NCBI GenBank assembly: GCA_011944185.1
Contig: GCA_011944185.1_3921.1
DNA length: 40,116 nt
Direction: 5' to 3' (one strand)
Source: a phage
Shown: piece by piece, positions 33,761 through 39,950 of the stretch
Numbering within the stretch: position 1 is the stretch's first letter
Layout of the letters: each line of letters opens with the position of its first letter
Made by a program: the position numbers and the translations under genes
The notes under the pieces: model-generated
The model's input: the letters and a program-made list of their open reading frames with translations, nothing else
Told to the model about the DNA's origin: nothing
Database searches by the model: none

Positions 33761-34864
33761 TTACTCATAATCCCTAATAACTAGCCCAACAGGAAACTGT
33801 AAAGAACCCTTACGAGTCATCTTCTGGAACTGTACCGTCAAAGGTTTCCCGATAAACTCTTCAGGATGCTCAGCAAGATACTGTTTCTTCTCATGAGTAG
33901 TCTTCCATGAGACATCTACAAAGATGTTAGGAAGAGTCTCTACAACGAACTTGCCATGACCACGCTTATCAGTCTTTACACCAGTCACTTTAAACTCTTC
34001 AGTGTGCATCTTCTTGTGCTTAATCAAGAAGTATGAACGGTGACAACACTCATAGAAGGAGTCTTCAGAGATTGAACGGTACATTGCACCTTCAAACTTA
34101 GCTTCAACCCACTTATCATGAGCTTCATCAAACTCTTCCCAAGAATTTACACGACGAGACTTAACAGGGACAACTTTACAGCCATCTCTAAAGTCATTCA
34201 ATGGTGAAGTCTCAATAATATCTCTACGCTCAGGCCACGTCTTAGTACTGTCACAGATATCATACCAGTAAAACTTAAGTAGATGACGGTCAGGATTGTC
34301 TTCATTTTTAATCATAGAGACAATATCTTCTAAGTCCCACCCATGAGCATAAATCTCACCATCAAATTCATCAACATCTTTGTGGAGCCTTAACATTGCC
34401 ATAATGTCAGGTATTAGCTCAGTAGGTATTTTATAAACAGTATTCTCACGAGAGTATGCTGTAAATACACTACCAATGCTTAAGTGTCTTGAAATTCTAC
34501 AACGGACACCATCAAGTTTTGGTTGAGCATCAGCAGGAAATATCAAATACTTTGCATGACTAACCTTTGCAGCATCATGAGCAAGCTGTACACCTACCTT
34601 CTCAGTATTCTGTGCAGACTCTTTCGTGTAAGCATAACCTTTACGGTCAACTTGCTTTTTATACTTAGCAGCAACTTCAAAGAGGGCTTGCTGTTCAGCA
34701 TTACGCTCATTCTTTTTACCGATGTTTTTAGGTTCTGCTGTATACTCTTCAAACATCATCTTGCCATTTTCTTTACCGTAGGTTGTAATAACTTTGTCAC
34801 CTACAGCAACGCATGACCAAACGTTGAAAGAGCCGTCTTTATTTTGTTTGTATAGAATTGTCAT
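33761..34864 (-). CDS. ATP-dependent DNA ligase
   Basis: adenylation motif I KLDG (QPKLDGVRC); 367 aa. Confidence 0.8.
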   Translation of the reverse strand: MTILYKQNKDGSFNVWSCVAVGDKVITTYGKENGKMMFEEYTAEPKNIGKKNERNAEQQALFEVAAKYKKQVDRKGYAYTKESAQNTEKVGVQLAHDAAKVSHAKYLIFPADAQPKLDGVRCRISRHLSIGSVFTAYSRENTVYKIPTELIPDIMAMLRLHKDVDEFDGEIYAHGWDLEDIVSMIKNEDNPDRHLLKFYWYDICDSTKTWPERRDIIETSPLNDFRDGCKVVPVKSRRVNSWEEFDEAHDKWVEAKFEGAMYRSISEDSFYECCHRSYFLIKHKKMHTEEFKVTGVKTDKRGHGKFVVETLPNIFVDVSWKTTHEKKQYLAEHPEEFIGKPLTVQFQKMTRKGSLQFPVGLVIRDYE

Positions 34865-34869
34865 TCAAA

Positions 34870-35394
34870 TTACCTTAGCATGTGTGATTTTACTGGAATA
34901 AAGATACCAAATTGTGAGACTGCTAAACCAGATAGTGATATACACTGTTCAGGTAAGTACACAAAAGCCCCTGTGTAGAAGTCTATAAAAGAACCATCAT
35001 CTTGTTTGCAGGCTAGTTTTCCATAACCATAGTTGTACAACTTTAATGAACCATCATCATACTTTGAGTAGTTCTTGAACTGAACATTAAAAGCATATTC
35101 AGAGAATCTTGTGTACAGGTCATAAAGCAATCCAATACTGTCGTCGACTATTGCTACACCAAACTTTTTACAAATATCCACATAGTTTTTGTATAATTTA
35201 TTATGATTTTCAGGTGTTGCAAAGTTTGTATACCAATGTTCTAAGATAGATAACTTAATTGGCTGATTTTTAGAATATTCTAATACCTTCATGTCATACC
35301 AAGATTTCCTAAGTCTGACATCATCTAGCCTTAAATTTTGAGACACTTCACGGAAGTTTTTGATGATTATATTTCTGCGCCTATTGTCAATCAT
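34870..35394 (-). CDS. hypothetical protein
   Basis: ORF 34870..35418 in the track; start placed at the internal ATG at 35394, which follows the upstream stop. Confidence 0.4.
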   Translation of the reverse strand: MIDNRRRNIIIKNFREVSQNLRLDDVRLRKSWYDMKVLEYSKNQPIKLSILEHWYTNFATPENHNKLYKNYVDICKKFGVAIVDDSIGLLYDLYTRFSEYAFNVQFKNYSKYDDGSLKLYNYGYGKLACKQDDGSFIDFYTGAFVYLPEQCISLSGLAVSQFGIFIPVKSHMLR

Positions 35395-35396
35395 AA

Positions 35397-35588
35397 TCAG
35401 CCCTCTGAGTGATACCAAGTATTACAAGCATTACATGCGTAAAGCTCTAAGTCATTTTTATCTGGTTTATGAAAACAGTTTGCTCCGCAGTGGCAACGAA
35501 ACGGCTTTCCACCAACTGTCAGGATGAAGGATTGAACCTTTCCATCTGGAGTTCGTACAGCATTTTTATGCTTATCTTCTTTGTTCAT
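35397..35588 (-). CDS. Zn-ribbon small protein (63 aa)
   Basis: CHCGANC ... CNAC cysteine pairs. Confidence 0.45.
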   Translation of the reverse strand: MNKEDKHKNAVRTPDGKVQSFILTVGGKPFRCHCGANCFHKPDKNDLELYACNACNTWYHSEG

Positions 35589-35890
35589 TTTCTCTTACCA
35601 CCAATCTCTACGTCAATAACTTGAACATCACCAGCAACATCAAACTTATGAATGATGCTTTCCACAGTGTAAGTCCAACCCTCGATTCGAACCAACTCAC
35701 CTTCTCGTGGGACGATTGGATTACGTTGAGCTACGGTTGTAGTGGAGTGAACAACATCATAACGATAGGTATAGTTTACTAGGACTTCCATCGTGAAAAC
35801 CTCACTCAATAACCGTAGTATGTGATTGTCCATTTTTGCCATAGCTGTAAGATGTTGTTGTTTGAGAGTTTGGACATCTGACAACAACAA
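35585..35890 (-). CDS. hypothetical protein (start uncertain)
   Basis: ORF overlaps the upstream lipoprotein gene unless it starts at an internal Met. Confidence 0.35.
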   Translation of the reverse strand: MLLSDVQTLKQQHLTAMAKMDNHILRLLSEVFTMEVLVNYTYRYDVVHSTTTVAQRNPIVPREGELVRIEGWTYTVESIIHKFDVAGDVQVIDVEIGGKRK

Positions 35891-36062
35891 TATCTCTGCT
35901 TATAGCGTCACCATGTAACTTGTATACTCTGCAATCTTGCATCTCTGGTGGGAGACTGTAAGAAGCATTTTTATCTTCATAAGAAGGGTTGCAGCCAGAT
36001 AGAAAAATAACACCAAGCACAATTACTGCTTTCCACATAGCACTTCTCCTATTACTGTTCAC
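35802..36062 (-). CDS. putative lipoprotein (86 aa)
   Basis: signal peptide with lipobox: MNSNRRSAMWKAVIVLGVIFLSGC (L-S-G-C). Confidence 0.55.
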   Translation of the reverse strand: MNSNRRSAMWKAVIVLGVIFLSGCNPSYEDKNASYSLPPEMQDCRVYKLHGDAISRDIVVVRCPNSQTTTSYSYGKNGQSHTTVIE

Positions 36063-36294
36063 GATGTTCTACTTCTCTGTACGTTCGCCGGTAGTTTATA
36101 ATAAGCTGTGCTAACTCGTTGCTTTTAACATCTGAACGTAGCAGTTGCCAATCAAAACCTTTACCGACTCTTCCATACAAACTGAATAATTTTACTTTGC
36201 GTTTCATTTTGGTATACCAATACTCAGAGGTCAATATTAATACGTTCGCCCTTAAGGACTCCTGTACGGTCTCTTGCAATCTTGCCGTCAACAA
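36052..36294 (-). CDS. hypothetical basic small protein
   Basis: ORF; may start at internal MKRKVK (about 36207). Confidence 0.35.
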   Translation of the reverse strand: MLTARLQETVQESLRANVLILTSEYWYTKMKRKVKLFSLYGRVGKGFDWQLLRSDVKSNELAQLIINYRRTYREVEHREQ

Positions 36295-36451
36295 TAAGGA
36301 TGTGTGCAGACTCTAAACAGTCGCCATTAAAAGCTTTTACGAACTTACTAGGCATCACTACAATGGACATCTCCTGAATCAACTCTGGAGTATAGCAATT
36401 GTCGTGAAGTTGCTGAATAACGTCTGCAAGTGTCATTTTTGATGTCTCCAA
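36224..36451 (-). CDS. hypothetical small protein (75 aa)
   Basis: ORF in a co-directional array. Confidence 0.35.
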   Translation of the reverse strand: METSKMTLADVIQQLHDNCYTPELIQEMSIVVMPSKFVKAFNGDCLESAHILIVDGKIARDRTGVLKGERINIDL

Positions 36452-36642
36452 TACTCAATATCAATAAGTTCTTGTGCAATGCTTTTCAGATTGCCTTTCA
36501 AGAAAACCTTCTCAGAACCTGAAAGAGATGAATTGTCAATTAACCTGTTCATTCTCTCAAACAACTTCTGCTTACGATTCTTGATAGTTTCCTTTGAAGC
36601 ACCTTTCATCATCGCTGCATGGGTTCTTCCACGATGGCTCAT
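36433..36642 (-). CDS. hypothetical basic small protein (69 aa)
   Basis: ORF in a co-directional array. Confidence 0.35.
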   Translation of the reverse strand: MSHRGRTHAAMMKGASKETIKNRKQKLFERMNRLIDNSSLSGSEKVFLKGNLKSIAQELIDIEYWRHQK

Positions 36643-36693
36643 AAGCCCTCCTATATAAGATATTGTATAAGGTACTCTTCCATGAGCACCTTG

Positions 36694-37209
36694 TCAACTT
36701 AGTTTTGCAAATTCTCCGTGGAGTTTAATAGCAGCTTCACAGTAAGCTTTATGGGCTTCTTCTTCTGTTGTGTATGTCCCTATATGTATAGTCTTGCCAT
36801 TATGGTTAATCTGGGCTATCCACTTACCAGACTTGCTTCTACTTGTACCTTTTAAGTTTTTTGATGTTCTAGGTTGTCTCCTATTGGACATGTTCTGCTC
36901 TTTTGTGGCCTCTCTTAGATTGTCCCAAGCGTTATTCAAACCATCTCCATCTTTGTGGTCAATGTGTTTATCAGGCCACTTACCTGTCATCCAGAACCAA
37001 GCAATTCGGTGATTGCCTGTCCTGTATCCTAAAATCTGTGTGTGCATATACACACCAGACCTTGTGCGCTTGATTGCTCCGGCTTGGCTCCCAATAACCA
37101 CCCTACTACTATGTGGAGGTCTGCCAATCCACGTTAAGACCCCTGTTTCGGGGTCATAGTTTAACCAAGACTTTAACTGTTCATGTGTGAATCCACAATC
37201 TCGCATCAA
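36694..37209 (-). CDS. HNH homing endonuclease with AP2-like DNA-binding domain
   Basis: HNH_3-like IDHKDGDGLNNAWDNLREAT; C-terminal AP2-like KSGKWIAQINHNGKTIHIGTYTTEEEAHKAY; overlaps the stop of the polymerase gene. Confidence 0.75.
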   Translation of the reverse strand: MMRDCGFTHEQLKSWLNYDPETGVLTWIGRPPHSSRVVIGSQAGAIKRTRSGVYMHTQILGYRTGNHRIAWFWMTGKWPDKHIDHKDGDGLNNAWDNLREATKEQNMSNRRQPRTSKNLKGTSRSKSGKWIAQINHNGKTIHIGTYTTEEEAHKAYCEAAIKLHGEFAKLS

Positions 37210-39905
37210 TGTACCTCATACCAGCTTTTACCAACCTTACCAGTACCTGTAACAAGCGTTTCTTTCTTAAGACCTAAGTTCTTAGAAGCTTGTCCATAAT
37301 ACCAGTCAGTAACTGCTTTCACTTCTGCCGTCATACTTTCTGGACATTCCCAACTCGTCTCGTCGTGATATGCGCAGAGTAAACGAGCACCAATAGCTGG
37401 TTTACGCCCATTTAACTTCATCAAGCCTTCGTCAATCATACGACGGCAAGCAAGGTTAATTGCCTCATTTTGAATCTGAGCCTCTGAACCCATGAGCAAA
37501 TAATTCAACAACTTATGTGGAGATTTACACCACAACCAAGCTCCAGCAACCTTTACAAAACCCCCTTTAGAGATTGCAGCGGTCTTACCAAACACCTCTT
37601 CAAGAGCCTTTTTAGTTGCTTTGTAGTCAGCTTCCAAGTTATCTAATAGTTTCTTAATCTTTGGCAAACGCACAAAGTAAGTCTGTTTAGTTAATGCACC
37701 TTCCTGAGTAGTTGCAGCTTTAATCGTCTTAGCAAACTTTTCATCACCTGCACCGAACAGTAGTGCATAGATACCATTCTTAGCTTTCTTACGACCTTTG
37801 CTAATCTCATGAAGAAGATTCTCATCCTGAGTAGCTCGACAAGTCAAGATATCCTGCTCATCATTCAAGCTAAAGTAAATACTGTTCAGTGTATGTGCAT
37901 CAGTCCCTGAATAGACAACGTACAGGTCATTCTCAGAGTCATAGCGAAGGTACTTATCAATCTCTGGGTTTAGGTACTCATCAAAATGTTTGCAGTAATA
38001 GCGTCCATCTTCTTGACGAATAAACTCAATCTCTTCTTTACCTTGCGTTACCGCTTTGGTGAAGTCTTTGTCACCCATAAAGTTACAAAGGAGAACTAGC
38101 TGGGCTGAGTTCATGTCTACAGAGACAACATTAGTACCTTCTTCACAAATCCACACTGCCCTCATTGGTTCCCCATAGACAGCAGCACCAGACGGTACGT
38201 TTACAATACCATATTGTGTCATACGTCCAGTTGAAGTACCAAATACCATTGCACCAGCACTAAGGCGACCATCTGGACGAATCTGGTTCAGCCAACCTTT
38301 CTCGTCATCCTTTGAGTTCTCAATAGTTCTGCGTCTGTGCATCAAAGTGTAGTACTTAGCAATCTTCTGTCCAAGCTCACCTTCAATCGTATCATAAGAT
38401 GATTCAGTAAGTTTTGGTGAAGTACGGATTAAGCAAGGTTCAAGCAAATCTGTGTATTTCTTCACGGACCAGTTATGCTCAATGTACTGAACACCTTCAT
38501 GTTCAACATAACTCAAACCACACCGCTCAACCATTTCCTGCCACTTAGGATGTTTTGTAATCATCTTTTTATTGTCTTTGAAACGACAAACTTTGACAGG
38601 GCGACCATCTGAGTCTTTCTTGTAGTTCCAGTCATCTGGAATCCAACCAACTGATTTCAAGTAGTCTTTAACAACTGCTACCTGAGTCATGCGAGAAACT
38701 TCGAACTCAATTGGTGTATATGGTGCATCAATCAAACCTGTGTAGCGACTTGACTCAAGTTCAAAGTGGTTAACAACGTGACTGTTATAGTACTTCACAG
38801 TTTTGACTGTTTTCACTGGCTTCCAGTCTTTGCATTTCTTACCAATCTTTGCATTCAACTCATTGCAAATTGCACGAGCATCCTTCATTGCTACAAAGCC
38901 TTCCTTGTACTCTTCACCAGTTACAGAGTTGGTTGGGGTGTAGCAATTTCTCTTTTCAATGTTAAAAATCTTTGTAGTTGGCTTACCAAATGGCTTGATT
39001 TCGTATGTCTGCATCTCACCGTTACGTACCTGCTGACGGTACTTTGTCTTAGGGTACTTGGTAATTCTCTTCAGTCCATCTGCATGACCGAATGCTTCAA
39101 CATACTCATTCCAAGCTTTTGCAAACTCTTCTCCAGTGACTTTACCTTTGGTCTTAATAGTTGGAGGAAGATGTGGTTCAACTTCTGAAGCAAGCTCATT
39201 AGTCAACTTGTCAAGTTCCTTTACATGAAACTCCATAAGCTCCTTATCAGCTTTCCAACCATTGATAGCTTGTTGACTCATCCAGAAAGATGTTTCTTTA
39301 GCTCGCATATAGGTTTCATAAGTATCTATGCCACACTTCTTAAGCTTGAGATACTCATTATCAAGTGCCCGTTTAGTTTTGGCGTTAATACGGATATCTT
39401 CTACAACACGAGTGAAGATTTCTGCATTCCACACACCCCAATGTTCAATCTCTGGTTTACGAACACCAACACGAGCACCCCATGCAGCCAAGCCATGAGC
39501 ACCTTTATAGCCTTTTGGAGTTGGCCTATCCATCCACTGAACACGAGACTGAATAAGAGAATCCTGAAAGAAATTACTCCACGGCTTACATTTTGGATTA
39601 TCAAAGTTCCATAAATCCGGTGCAATGTGATTGAAAACCCACCAGTCATAACCGAGGCCATTATGGATACAAAGTCGTTTTGCCTTTAACGCAAACTCAA
39701 CACCTTCACGTAAACCACCCTTAATGTACTTAGTGTACTTGTGACCGAGGATAGGCTCATCTGTAAAGACCCATACAGGTGGCTCTTCATCGTCAGATTT
39801 ATAGTCTGCAAAAGCCATTACGTGAACTTTAGTGAACTCAAGGAGTAAACCATCAGTTTCTGTATCACCAACTAAATGTAAGTTTTTAAAATCTACGTTT
39901 TCCAT
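37206..39905 (-). CDS. DNA polymerase, family A, with 3'-5' exonuclease domain
   Basis: Exo I DTETDG; motif A-like VVSVDMNSAQL; motif B-like KNGIYALLFGAG; motif C YHDE; ATG at 39905 with GAGGGAG RBS (the track starts 30 nt further upstream at 39935). Confidence 0.88.
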   Translation of the reverse strand: MENVDFKNLHLVGDTETDGLLLEFTKVHVMAFADYKSDDEEPPVWVFTDEPILGHKYTKYIKGGLREGVEFALKAKRLCIHNGLGYDWWVFNHIAPDLWNFDNPKCKPWSNFFQDSLIQSRVQWMDRPTPKGYKGAHGLAAWGARVGVRKPEIEHWGVWNAEIFTRVVEDIRINAKTKRALDNEYLKLKKCGIDTYETYMRAKETSFWMSQQAINGWKADKELMEFHVKELDKLTNELASEVEPHLPPTIKTKGKVTGEEFAKAWNEYVEAFGHADGLKRITKYPKTKYRQQVRNGEMQTYEIKPFGKPTTKIFNIEKRNCYTPTNSVTGEEYKEGFVAMKDARAICNELNAKIGKKCKDWKPVKTVKTVKYYNSHVVNHFELESSRYTGLIDAPYTPIEFEVSRMTQVAVVKDYLKSVGWIPDDWNYKKDSDGRPVKVCRFKDNKKMITKHPKWQEMVERCGLSYVEHEGVQYIEHNWSVKKYTDLLEPCLIRTSPKLTESSYDTIEGELGQKIAKYYTLMHRRRTIENSKDDEKGWLNQIRPDGRLSAGAMVFGTSTGRMTQYGIVNVPSGAAVYGEPMRAVWICEEGTNVVSVDMNSAQLVLLCNFMGDKDFTKAVTQGKEEIEFIRQEDGRYYCKHFDEYLNPEIDKYLRYDSENDLYVVYSGTDAHTLNSIYFSLNDEQDILTCRATQDENLLHEISKGRKKAKNGIYALLFGAGDEKFAKTIKAATTQEGALTKQTYFVRLPKIKKLLDNLEADYKATKKALEEVFGKTAAISKGGFVKVAGAWLWCKSPHKLLNYLLMGSEAQIQNEAINLACRRMIDEGLMKLNGRKPAIGARLLCAYHDETSWECPESMTAEVKAVTDWYYGQASKNLGLKKETLVTGTGKVGKSWYEVH

Positions 39906-39950
39906 TTTTACTCCCTCTAAAATCATTAACCTCATACATTACTGCAAAAA

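Follow-up and report, generated by a model that had tools for sequence, protein, structure and literature searches.

The small lipoproteins Llp of phage T5 and Rtp45 of phage Rtp confer superinfection exclusion by acting on the receptor (PMC12685063), and exclusion genes of siphophages are thought to neighbour the gene for the receptor-binding protein (PMC8594841). The T4 genes sp (gene 61.3, Spackle) and imm are early exclusion genes, with envelope-located products, and are situated among replication genes. The o-spanins of the lambda Rz1 type are also small phage lipoproteins, carrying an outer-membrane sorting signal; they have an i-spanin partner and are proline-rich. The window analysed here, a stretch of 40,116 nucleotides (contig GCA_011944185.1_3921.1), is from a Felixounavirus, a Felix O1-like myophage, and encodes a predicted lipoprotein that shares features with each of these systems. 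Like Llp (PDB 8a60) and Rtp45, both from coliphages, it is small (6-8 kDa mature), would face the periplasm and belongs to a virulent phage; like T4 Sp and Imm, it would be located in the envelope of cells infected by a virulent myophage and its gene lies among DNA-replication genes; like the o-spanins, it has a predicted outer-membrane sorting signal. The initial annotation had likened it to T5 Llp. Our analysis leaves that analogy unsupported as family membership and weak as mechanism, and a broader role in superinfection exclusion or envelope protection is plausible. The features discussed below are as follows, all on the minus strand.

33761-34864, minus: ATP-dependent DNA ligase, flanking gene (Pfam DNA_ligase_A_M and OB_2)
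34870-35394, minus: 174-aa accessory gene between the ligase and the small-gene cluster (ORF without family match)
35397-35588, minus: 63-aa Cys4 zinc-knuckle ("Zn-ribbon") protein, phrog_5768, pI 8.3, 5 Cys (conserved Cys)
35585-35791, minus: 68-aa acidic protein, phrog_4427, pI 5.6 (ORF, PHROG match)
35802-36038, minus: predicted prolipoprotein, 78 aa, phrog_902, with a precomputed Pfam DUF4884 tag (ORF, PHROG match, conserved Cys)
35991-36002, minus: lipobox L13-S14-G15-C16 (sequence and PROSITE-type rule)
35994-36038, minus: predicted signal peptide, residues 1-15 (sequence)
36046-36050, minus: AGGAG Shine-Dalgarno sequence, 7 nt upstream of ATG 36038 (upstream sequence)
36052-36207, minus: 51-aa basic protein (p51), phrog_2381, pI 10.2 (PHROG match)
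36224-36436, minus: 70-aa acidic protein (p70), phrog_4230, pI 5.1 (PHROG match)
36433-36642, minus: 69-aa basic protein (p69), phrog_5180, pI 10.3 (PHROG match)
36694-37209, minus: HNH_3 + AP2 homing endonuclease, flanking gene (Pfam)
37206-39935, minus: family-A DNA polymerase, flanking gene (PF00476)

The predicted prolipoprotein and its gene

The initial annotation had recognized a lipoprotein in the minus-strand ORF 35802-36062, with an N-terminus ending in L-S-G-C. The ORF and its lipobox were confirmed from the sequence, but the start had to be corrected: GTG 36062 is very probably not the start, because the AGGAG lies 7 nt upstream of ATG 36038, which we take as the true one. In addition, the product of ATG 36038 has Met1 and Cys16 in register with the whole family alignment, and the equivalent 78-aa start is annotated in phages JohannRWettstein and Moogle, with an RBS included in the annotation of the Moogle homologue. 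The resulting 78-aa product of 35802-36038 is MWKAVIVLGVIFLSGC, in which K3 and C16 satisfy PROSITE PS51257 (K/R within the first 7 residues, an uncharged hydrophobic stretch, [LIVMFYSTAGCQ][AGS]C, and the Cys at position 15-35; for the membership test, the lipobox was worded as [LVI][ASTVI][GAS]C with the Cys at residue 15-35). This was the only one among 741 combinations of start and ORF (six frames of the window, at least 40 aa) to pass the PROSITE lipoprotein rule.

Judging from its sequence, the gene is predicted to encode a genuine bacterial-type prolipoprotein, which would follow the established pathway of Sec export, Lgt lipidation on Cys16 and cleavage by signal peptidase II. The mature lipoprotein would comprise 63 aa, beginning at Cys16 with Asn as the +2 residue, which under the Lol rule of E. 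coli would direct the protein to the outer membrane, on the side of its inner leaflet. The lipoprotein signature proposed initially is strongly supported by conservation, with C16, C36 and C55 invariant in 150 aligned family members (29-91% identity) and the lipobox kept in 150 of 160 members as judged by a PROSITE-type pattern. The +2 sorting residue is variable across the family, with Asp in 22 of the 150, suggesting that the anchoring membrane may not be critical. The gene was detected in all 22 Felix O1-like loci examined as well as in Moogle, has a dN/dS of 0.14 across the 22 loci and looks like a core gene of Felix O1-like phages.

AF2 models (pLDDT 71-75) show beta strands flanking both C36 and C55, with the C-terminal strands below pLDDT 65 and confidence only moderate; they predict that the mature part, ~63 aa long, folds as a small beta-sheet domain. 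The invariance of C36 and C55 suggests that they probably form a disulfide, which would fit a periplasmic location. Sequence and fold searches of the PDB gave no solved structure similar to the lipoprotein, and PDB sequence searches with each small protein of the locus and with the family profile yielded signal-peptide matches or noise only.

Distribution of the lipoprotein family

The lipoprotein matched phrog_902 (E 3.5e-17, 63.9 bits, residues 6-84 of the 86-aa form), and its family comprises 488 relatives after clustering at 50% identity, with matches in 586 of about 50,700 phage records. These are spread over several virulent lineages (Ounavirinae, Straboviridae, Demerecviridae, Stephanstirmvirinae, Asteriusvirus and other jumbo phages), whose hosts include Enterobacteria, Vibrio, Acinetobacter, Aeromonas and others, and the motif DC.vY.L...VVRCPNS.TTT..GK is shared by phages that come from at least 6 lineages and infect many host genera. 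Phrog_902/DUF4884 looks like a large single-gene family that is horizontally scattered among virulent phages.

A precomputed PF16225 (DUF4884) tag is found on all relatives, with no weak or faint mark; direct hmmscan against a local Pfam copy gave no PF16225 match for the protein, its mature part or the 150 relatives, even at E up to 10. "DUF4884 domain-containing protein" is the GenBank name of an 86-aa phage protein (PMC12210894); literature searches on the family found no paper. Five relatives match Pfam LPAM_1, and family members carry the name "Lipoprotein" in a viral structure library. On the bacterial side, a strict scan with the back-translated motif found a single locus, in Hylemonella, and one bacterial copy has an HTH regulator gene nearby, followed about 2 kb later by an ABC-3C-type gene. 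Two long "multi-stretch" matches, P0023 and P0095, were considered as tandem-domain proteins and rejected, being low-complexity repeats without lipoprotein features.

Neighbouring genes and genomic context

The lipoprotein gene is inside a tightly packed same-strand run that extends from the DNA polymerase to the ligase. As initially described, the cluster of small genes is flanked by ligase, HNH endonuclease and polymerase genes, and these identities stood in Pfam; the 174-aa gene at 34870-35394, however, separates the ligase from the cluster. This gene has no match in Pfam, PHROG, NCBIfam, PADLOC or PDB, and its homologues were found in 16 phage records only (35-99% identity). The HNH_3 + AP2 endonuclease is mobile and missing from some relatives, being absent at the corresponding position in L029, L030 and Moogle. 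In Moogle, the same-strand run proceeds from polymerase to ligase to thymidylate synthase, with the family-A polymerase as the first gene of the block. A scan of promoters and terminators gave a number of sites not above that of shuffled sequence, and the transcription unit could not be defined.

The six small ORFs are real genes, with dN/dS of 0.07-0.23 in up to 22 related loci. The five neighbours of the lipoprotein gene had been characterized as small, basic or Cys-rich; all are small, two are basic (p51 and p69) and one is Cys-rich, but the products of phrog_4427 and phrog_4230 are acidic. The Cys-rich 63-aa protein has C32-x-C34 and C52-x2-C55 plus H40 and H60 invariant in 7 homologues, and these two conserved Cys knuckles (CxC/CxxC) with a linker of hairpin length mark it as a putative Zn ribbon, with no Pfam or PDB sequence match. 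Its gene, whose start overlaps the phrog_4427 stop by 4 nt, was detected in 15 of 22 related loci, with close homologue clusters numbering 6 only and no counterpart in the Moogle annotation; it is an accessory gene restricted to Felixounavirus-like phages. The phrog_4427 and phrog_4230 genes were found in 22/22 loci (dN/dS 0.15 and 0.23, respectively), that of p69 in 18/22 (dN/dS 0.07; preceded by a strong SD, AGGAGG, and overlapping the next gene by 4 nt) and that of p51 in 16/22, so that the Zn-ribbon, p51 and p69 genes went undetected in some relatives. None of the five neighbours, which the initial annotation regarded as typical of host-takeover or anti-defence genes, has a match in Pfam, NCBIfam, PADLOC or PDB sequences, and no meaningful match emerged when all seven small proteins were scanned against Pfam, NCBIfam and PADLOC. 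Felix O1 recognizes GlcNAc of the LPS core, and p70 was considered as a WaaK-like LPS GlcNAc-transferase (E 4.4e-4); the match was retained by near-identical homologues only and lost in homologues at 33-53% identity, and we rejected it as chance.

In other phage families, none of the cluster neighbours accompanies the lipoprotein, and the five neighbours are independent genes rather than components of one system with it. The surroundings of the lipoprotein gene itself consisted of replication or early-type genes in all phages examined. In a Vibrio T5-like phage, the copy is about 3 kb from a NAD-ligase gene, and in jumbo phage fHe-Yen9-03 its neighbours are small genes, in a block for which sigma-70-type promoters are annotated. 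In the Acinetobacter phage Acj61, the copy is two genes upstream of 61.1 and beside the primase gene, i.e. in the slot that sp occupies in T4, a single positional coincidence; T4 61.2 was considered as a homologue of the Acj61 neighbour gene, and this homology was rejected. No receptor-binding, tail-fibre or lysis gene adjoins the lipoprotein gene in the contexts examined; in Moogle, a tail fibre gene is found about 8 kb from the homologue, on the opposite strand.

Candidate roles of the lipoprotein

Recognizing that any assignment of exclusion rests on genomic context, localization and analogy, we tentatively favour, at somewhat less than an even chance, an early periplasmic effector that acts on a conserved envelope component, with protection against secondary infection after adsorption as its likeliest function and receptor masking as an unlikely one. 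We surmise that the lipoprotein is probably made early or in mid-infection together with the replication genes, a timing that is read from gene order only, and that its target in the periplasm would be a conserved component of the host envelope or the apparatus with which incoming phages penetrate the cell. It would thereby guard the infected cell against secondary infection or lysis from without at a step after adsorption. A phage-specific receptor would be an unlikely target; a conserved one is favoured because the family motif spans at least 6 lineages, the neighbours are not co-transferred and the +2 residue varies. In function, the lipoprotein would then correspond to T4 Spackle/Imm rather than to T5 Llp. 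The correspondence does not extend to descent, as neither homology nor a similar fold links the lipoprotein with Sp, Imm, Llp or any characterized protein. In a BLASTP comparison, T4 Sp aligned with the family member of Acj61 over the 20-residue signal peptide only (E 0.028), from which homology was rejected, and T4 is not among the family matches listed. In addition, T4 Sp has a signal peptide without a lipobox and should be soluble in the periplasm, in contrast to the predicted lipid-anchored beta sheet of the present protein. In a further-reaching form, to which we give perhaps one chance in several, phrog_902/DUF4884 would be a horizontally mobile, receptor-independent periplasmic module with which many unrelated virulent phages, of the lineages listed above, make the envelope of the infected cell refractory to penetration or lysis from without via a conserved host target, by a mechanism distinct from those of Llp, Cor, Rtp45 and Sp/Imm.

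The localization, early-type gene placement and wide distribution that suggest exclusion fit equally well with an envelope take-over or counter-defence function, in which the lipoprotein would block or divert some conserved machinery of the host envelope, or a defence associated with the envelope, to the benefit of its own phage cycle rather than to stop incoming phages. Candidate targets include lytic transglycosylases, Lpt/Bam/Lol/Tol-Pal, vesiculation, or another phage's exclusion protein. The independence of the family from phage structural genes fits a host target, and the bacterial copy near the HTH regulator and ABC-3C-type genes is also in keeping with this possibility; on the other hand, we found no similarity to known inhibitor families and no notable PADLOC match. 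Although nothing in our data discriminates between take-over and exclusion, we consider take-over rather unlikely.

The mechanism implied by the initial analogy is that through which Llp and Rtp45 act (PMC12685063), i.e. the lipoprotein, as also in the case of Cor, would attach from the periplasmic side to the outer-membrane receptor used by its own phage and change the receptor allosterically, preventing the binding of further virions and, on cell debris, of progeny. An outer-membrane-directed lipoprotein of a virulent phage, near Llp and Rtp45 in size (about 6-8 kDa), would be suited to such masking, but several findings speak against it. The family profile matched T5 Llp (8a60_B) over residues 1-18 only, i.e. 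the signal peptide (E = 4.2), and no Llp-like fold was found for the lipoprotein in PDB searches. The gene sits between polymerase and ligase and not beside a gene for a receptor-binding protein or tail fibre, as would be expected of the Llp family, the tail fibre gene of Moogle being distant and on the other strand. Moreover, the Felix O1-like phage Bas63 requires the LPS core rather than a protein receptor (PMC8594841), as opposed to FhuA or LptD in the Llp/Rtp45 systems, and, unlike Llp and Rtp45, the same conserved protein is common to many lineages and host genera with presumably unrelated receptors. Given these discrepancies, we regard receptor masking as improbable.

A function in lysis, as the outer-membrane spanin subunit or as a periplasmic regulator of lysis timing, appears more improbable still. 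It is true that o-spanins are small outer-membrane lipoproteins and that lysis genes in Felix O1-like phages are scattered rather than in a cassette (PMC4319497). However, an i-spanin partner gene is lacking beside the lipoprotein gene, as no neighbour has a transmembrane segment (15-residue hydropathy maximum ≤1.2 in each, p51 included), and, unlike lambda Rz1, the mature lipoprotein is not proline-rich (4 Pro in 63 residues, 6%) and has a predicted folded beta domain. An i-spanin and an o-spanin have been reported for Moogle (PMC4319497), but its counterpart of the lipoprotein, Moogle40, carries the label "hypothetical", and the annotation of the first 45 kb of the Moogle genome lists no spanin; the constant company of replication genes also argues against lysis. 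Finally, that the lipobox is a chance feature of a small cytoplasmic protein, or of no gene at all, since random sequence may yield a short hydrophobic N-terminus containing a Cys, is effectively refuted by the conservation of C16 in 150 divergent sequences, together with the dN/dS, the canonical SD and the uniqueness of this start among those tested in the window.

The present outcome is a correct gene-level annotation of the lipoprotein, the functional role that we propose being a guess. Since the family is large and uncharacterized, one experiment on one member would annotate hundreds of genomes. Felix O1-like phages have been studied as biocontrol and therapy agents. They are also used in Salmonella diagnostics (PMC8594841). 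If the proposed role is true, it would help explain how phages that recognize LPS, without a protein receptor, exclude competitors, and the rendering of infected cells refractory to other phages would have consequences for the composition of phage cocktails.

The lipoprotein gene and its start codon

The initial annotation had placed a signal peptide ending in the lipobox L-S-G-C at the N-terminus of an ORF at 35802-36062, and this signal peptide is indeed seen; however, the GTG start at 36062 is probably wrong. The ATG at 36038 is favored by three findings: AGGAG precedes it at 7-nt spacing, the resulting 78-aa protein has Met1 and Cys16 in register with the entire family in the alignment, and phages JohannRWettstein and Moogle are annotated with the equivalent start. 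Once the start codon is corrected, the observation is correct. Upon coding the PROSITE PS51257 rule and running it on all ATG, GTG and TTG starts of ORFs of at least 40 aa in six frames, we found that only the lipoprotein ORF passed among 741 start/ORF combinations in the window; in addition, the lipobox pattern is kept in 150 of 160 relatives, in line with the strong lipoprotein signature proposed. As a sequence-based prediction, the lipoprotein call can be regarded as robust. Asn follows the lipobox Cys at +2, so the E. coli Lol rule would have the protein sorted to the outer membrane; across the family this position is variable (N, E, D, T, S and G all occur), and 22 of the 150 members have Asp.

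Two AlphaFold2 models, of the full-length protein (pLDDT 71) and of the mature part (pLDDT 75), were each built from >140 aligned sequences. In both, the conserved Y.LP.E motif sits on a short linker that leads into a beta sheet of four to five strands, and C36 and C55 lie at the ends of neighboring strands. C16, C36 and C55 are the only invariant residues in a 150-sequence alignment (29-91% identity to the query), and the family consensus reads LxGC...Y.LP.EL.DCK.Y.L...VVRCPNS.TTT.Y..GK. The gene product is thus a conserved prolipoprotein, and its mature domain, probably disulfide-bonded, has the features expected in the periplasm.

Family size and distribution

When 1.84 billion cluster representatives were searched exhaustively with phmmer, 488 proteins matched at E <= 1e-3; two long matches proved to be repetitive junk sequence. 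By tblastn, the family occurs in 586 phage records; about 295 Vibrio phage records carry it, the one inspected being a T5-like Demerecviridae phage. Among the matches listed or inspected, carriers comprised Felixounavirus, Mooglevirus, the Acinetobacter T4-like phage Acj61, Stephanstirmvirinae, Asteriusvirus and other jumbo phages. The family is also found in Pectobacterium, Pantoea and Cronobacter phages of about 145-150 kb, one Aeromonas phage and one 44-kb Acinetobacter phage, and the members retrieved from a viral structure library, some of which bear the name 'Lipoprotein', come from phages of Yersinia, Vibrio and Aeromonas. As judged by similarity searches, the family is large and promiscuously distributed among phages. 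A strict back-translated motif, common to 13% of the family, had a single match in 185,579 species genomes, in Hylemonella gracilis, so the family seems to belong chiefly to phages. The match in strain ATCC 19624 (NZ_AEGR01000062.1; locus L006, 4568-4846) is a 92-aa lipoprotein homologue near XRE-type HTH, endonuclease/exonuclease/phosphatase-family and ABC-3C CTD10 genes, and may lie inside a mobile or defence island.

In the profile library, the lipoprotein falls in phrog_902, a catalogue family without assigned function. All members (proteins P0001-P0011 and P0169-P0208; homologous loci L029/L030, 3001-3237) carry a precomputed Pfam tag, PF16225 (DUF4884), but when these proteins were scanned directly with hmmscan against a local Pfam copy, no match to PF16225 emerged even at E up to 10.

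Gene layout and the neighboring small genes

Among 50,697 phage records, 258 matched 35300-36750 at 80-99% identity by megablast, mostly phages of Escherichia, Salmonella, Shigella and Citrobacter, with some classified as Felixounavirus (e.g. JohannRWettstein). The region's genes are all on the minus strand, and features of the window include:

98-5672, plus strand, array of 25 tRNA genes serving most amino acids
33761-34864, minus strand, ATP-dependent DNA ligase, a single 367-aa ORF
34870-35394, minus strand, 174-aa gene flanked by the Zn-ribbon and ligase genes
35397-35588, minus strand, 63-aa Zn-ribbon protein
35585-35791, minus strand, small gene p68
35802-36038, minus strand, lipoprotein
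36052-36207, minus strand, small gene p51
36224-36436, minus strand, small gene p70
36433-36642, minus strand, small gene p69
36694-37209, minus strand, HNH_3+AP2 homing endonuclease (domain match)
37206-39935, minus strand, family-A DNA polymerase (PF00476)

In several relatives (e.g. skuden, heid, warpig) the match covers two annotated 'DNA ligase' CDSs, suggesting that their ligase genes were split or re-annotated. The records of Staphylococcus phage SA1 (GU169904.1, 93801-95310, 94% nucleotide identity) and Campylobacter phage A132 (MG065664.1) also match this Felixounavirus region and are probably contaminated or mis-attributed database entries.

The six small genes are spaced from a 4-nt overlap up to a 16-nt gap, most with recognizable Shine-Dalgarno sequences, and their dN/dS of 0.07-0.23 (up to 22 related loci) indicates that all six are real coding genes. 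The description of the neighbors as small and basic or Cys-rich holds in part: some are basic, but the five pI values (8.3, 5.6, 10.2, 5.1 and 10.3) include two acidic ones, and Cys-richness is confined to the 63-aa protein. Its C32, C34, C52 and C55 (CxC...CxxC), invariant in seven homologues, form a pattern compatible with a zinc ribbon, and the protein is restricted to close relatives. WaaK, the LPS N-acetylglucosaminyltransferase, produces a sugar said to be recognized by Felix O1; p70 matched its NCBIfam model weakly (E 4.4e-4, model positions 122-171 of 380), but the match was kept by near-identical homologues only and lost at 33-53% identity, and is probably due to chance.

All Felix O1-like relatives examined (22/22 loci) have the lipoprotein gene, p68 and p70, with p69 detected in 18, p51 in 16, the Zn-ribbon gene in 15, the HNH gene in 13 and the 174-aa gene in 2. 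Given this uneven presence, the 'cluster' is no module but a row of small genes independent of one another, of which some are core and others were not found in all relatives. The HNH_3+AP2 gene is missing from the polymerase/small-gene junction in L029, L030 and Moogle, as would fit a mobile homing element. The 174-aa gene had no match in Pfam, PHROGs, NCBIfam, PADLOC or PDB and was found in no more than 16 phage records, its alleles being 35-99% identical in genomes otherwise roughly 90% identical; since other small genes occupy its position in relatives (e.g. a 55-aa ORF, L029/L030 3452-3619), this region, directly upstream of the ligase, resembles a variable hotspot for accessory genes.

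Genomic context and possible function

In every context inspected, the lipoprotein gene lies among replication or small early-type genes, as exemplified by: 1) the window, where it sits between polymerase and ligase; 2) Moogle, where it is within a same-strand run from polymerase (after a divergent intergenic region) to thymidylate synthase; 3) Acj61 (L002, 3001-3252), where it is two genes upstream of 61.1, adjoining the primase gene; 4) the Vibrio T5-like phage, with an NAD-ligase gene about 3 kb away; and 5) jumbo phage fHe-Yen9-03, in a small-gene block with annotated sigma-70-type promoters. The Acj61 slot is occupied in T4 by sp (L031, 3259-3552), an unrelated periplasmic exclusion gene, which may reflect non-orthologous replacement or coincidence. 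No Felixounavirus neighbors were found travelling with the lipoprotein elsewhere.

Known early periplasmic proteins of virulent phages, such as T4 Sp, Imm and RI and T5 Llp, are concerned with secondary infection or with the timing of lysis. Based on these precedents, we tentatively rank protection after adsorption first among the possible functions, by analogy; the lipoprotein would be expressed early or middle in infection, and its target would be a conserved envelope component. The main rival, a general role in envelope take-over or counter-defence, seems unlikely to us. The T5 Llp analogy of the initial annotation has fared less well, with membership unsupported and receptor capping a weak explanation: the family spans many phage lineages and host genera, whose receptors presumably differ considerably, and the Felix O1-like phage tested depends on the LPS core (PMC8594841). 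In addition, siphophage exclusion genes are thought to be located with the RBP gene (PMC8594841), but no tail-fibre, RBP or lysis gene was found beside the lipoprotein gene in the contexts inspected. An o-spanin assignment fails, as no neighbor has a transmembrane segment, the modelled domain appears folded and proline-poor, and the homologue in Moogle, a phage with reported spanins (PMC4319497), is labelled hypothetical.

As hundreds of sequenced genomes already carry the lipoprotein gene without annotation, and its family is catalogued without assigned function, the finding comes as no surprise, but as a sound annotation and a reasonable lead for experiment.
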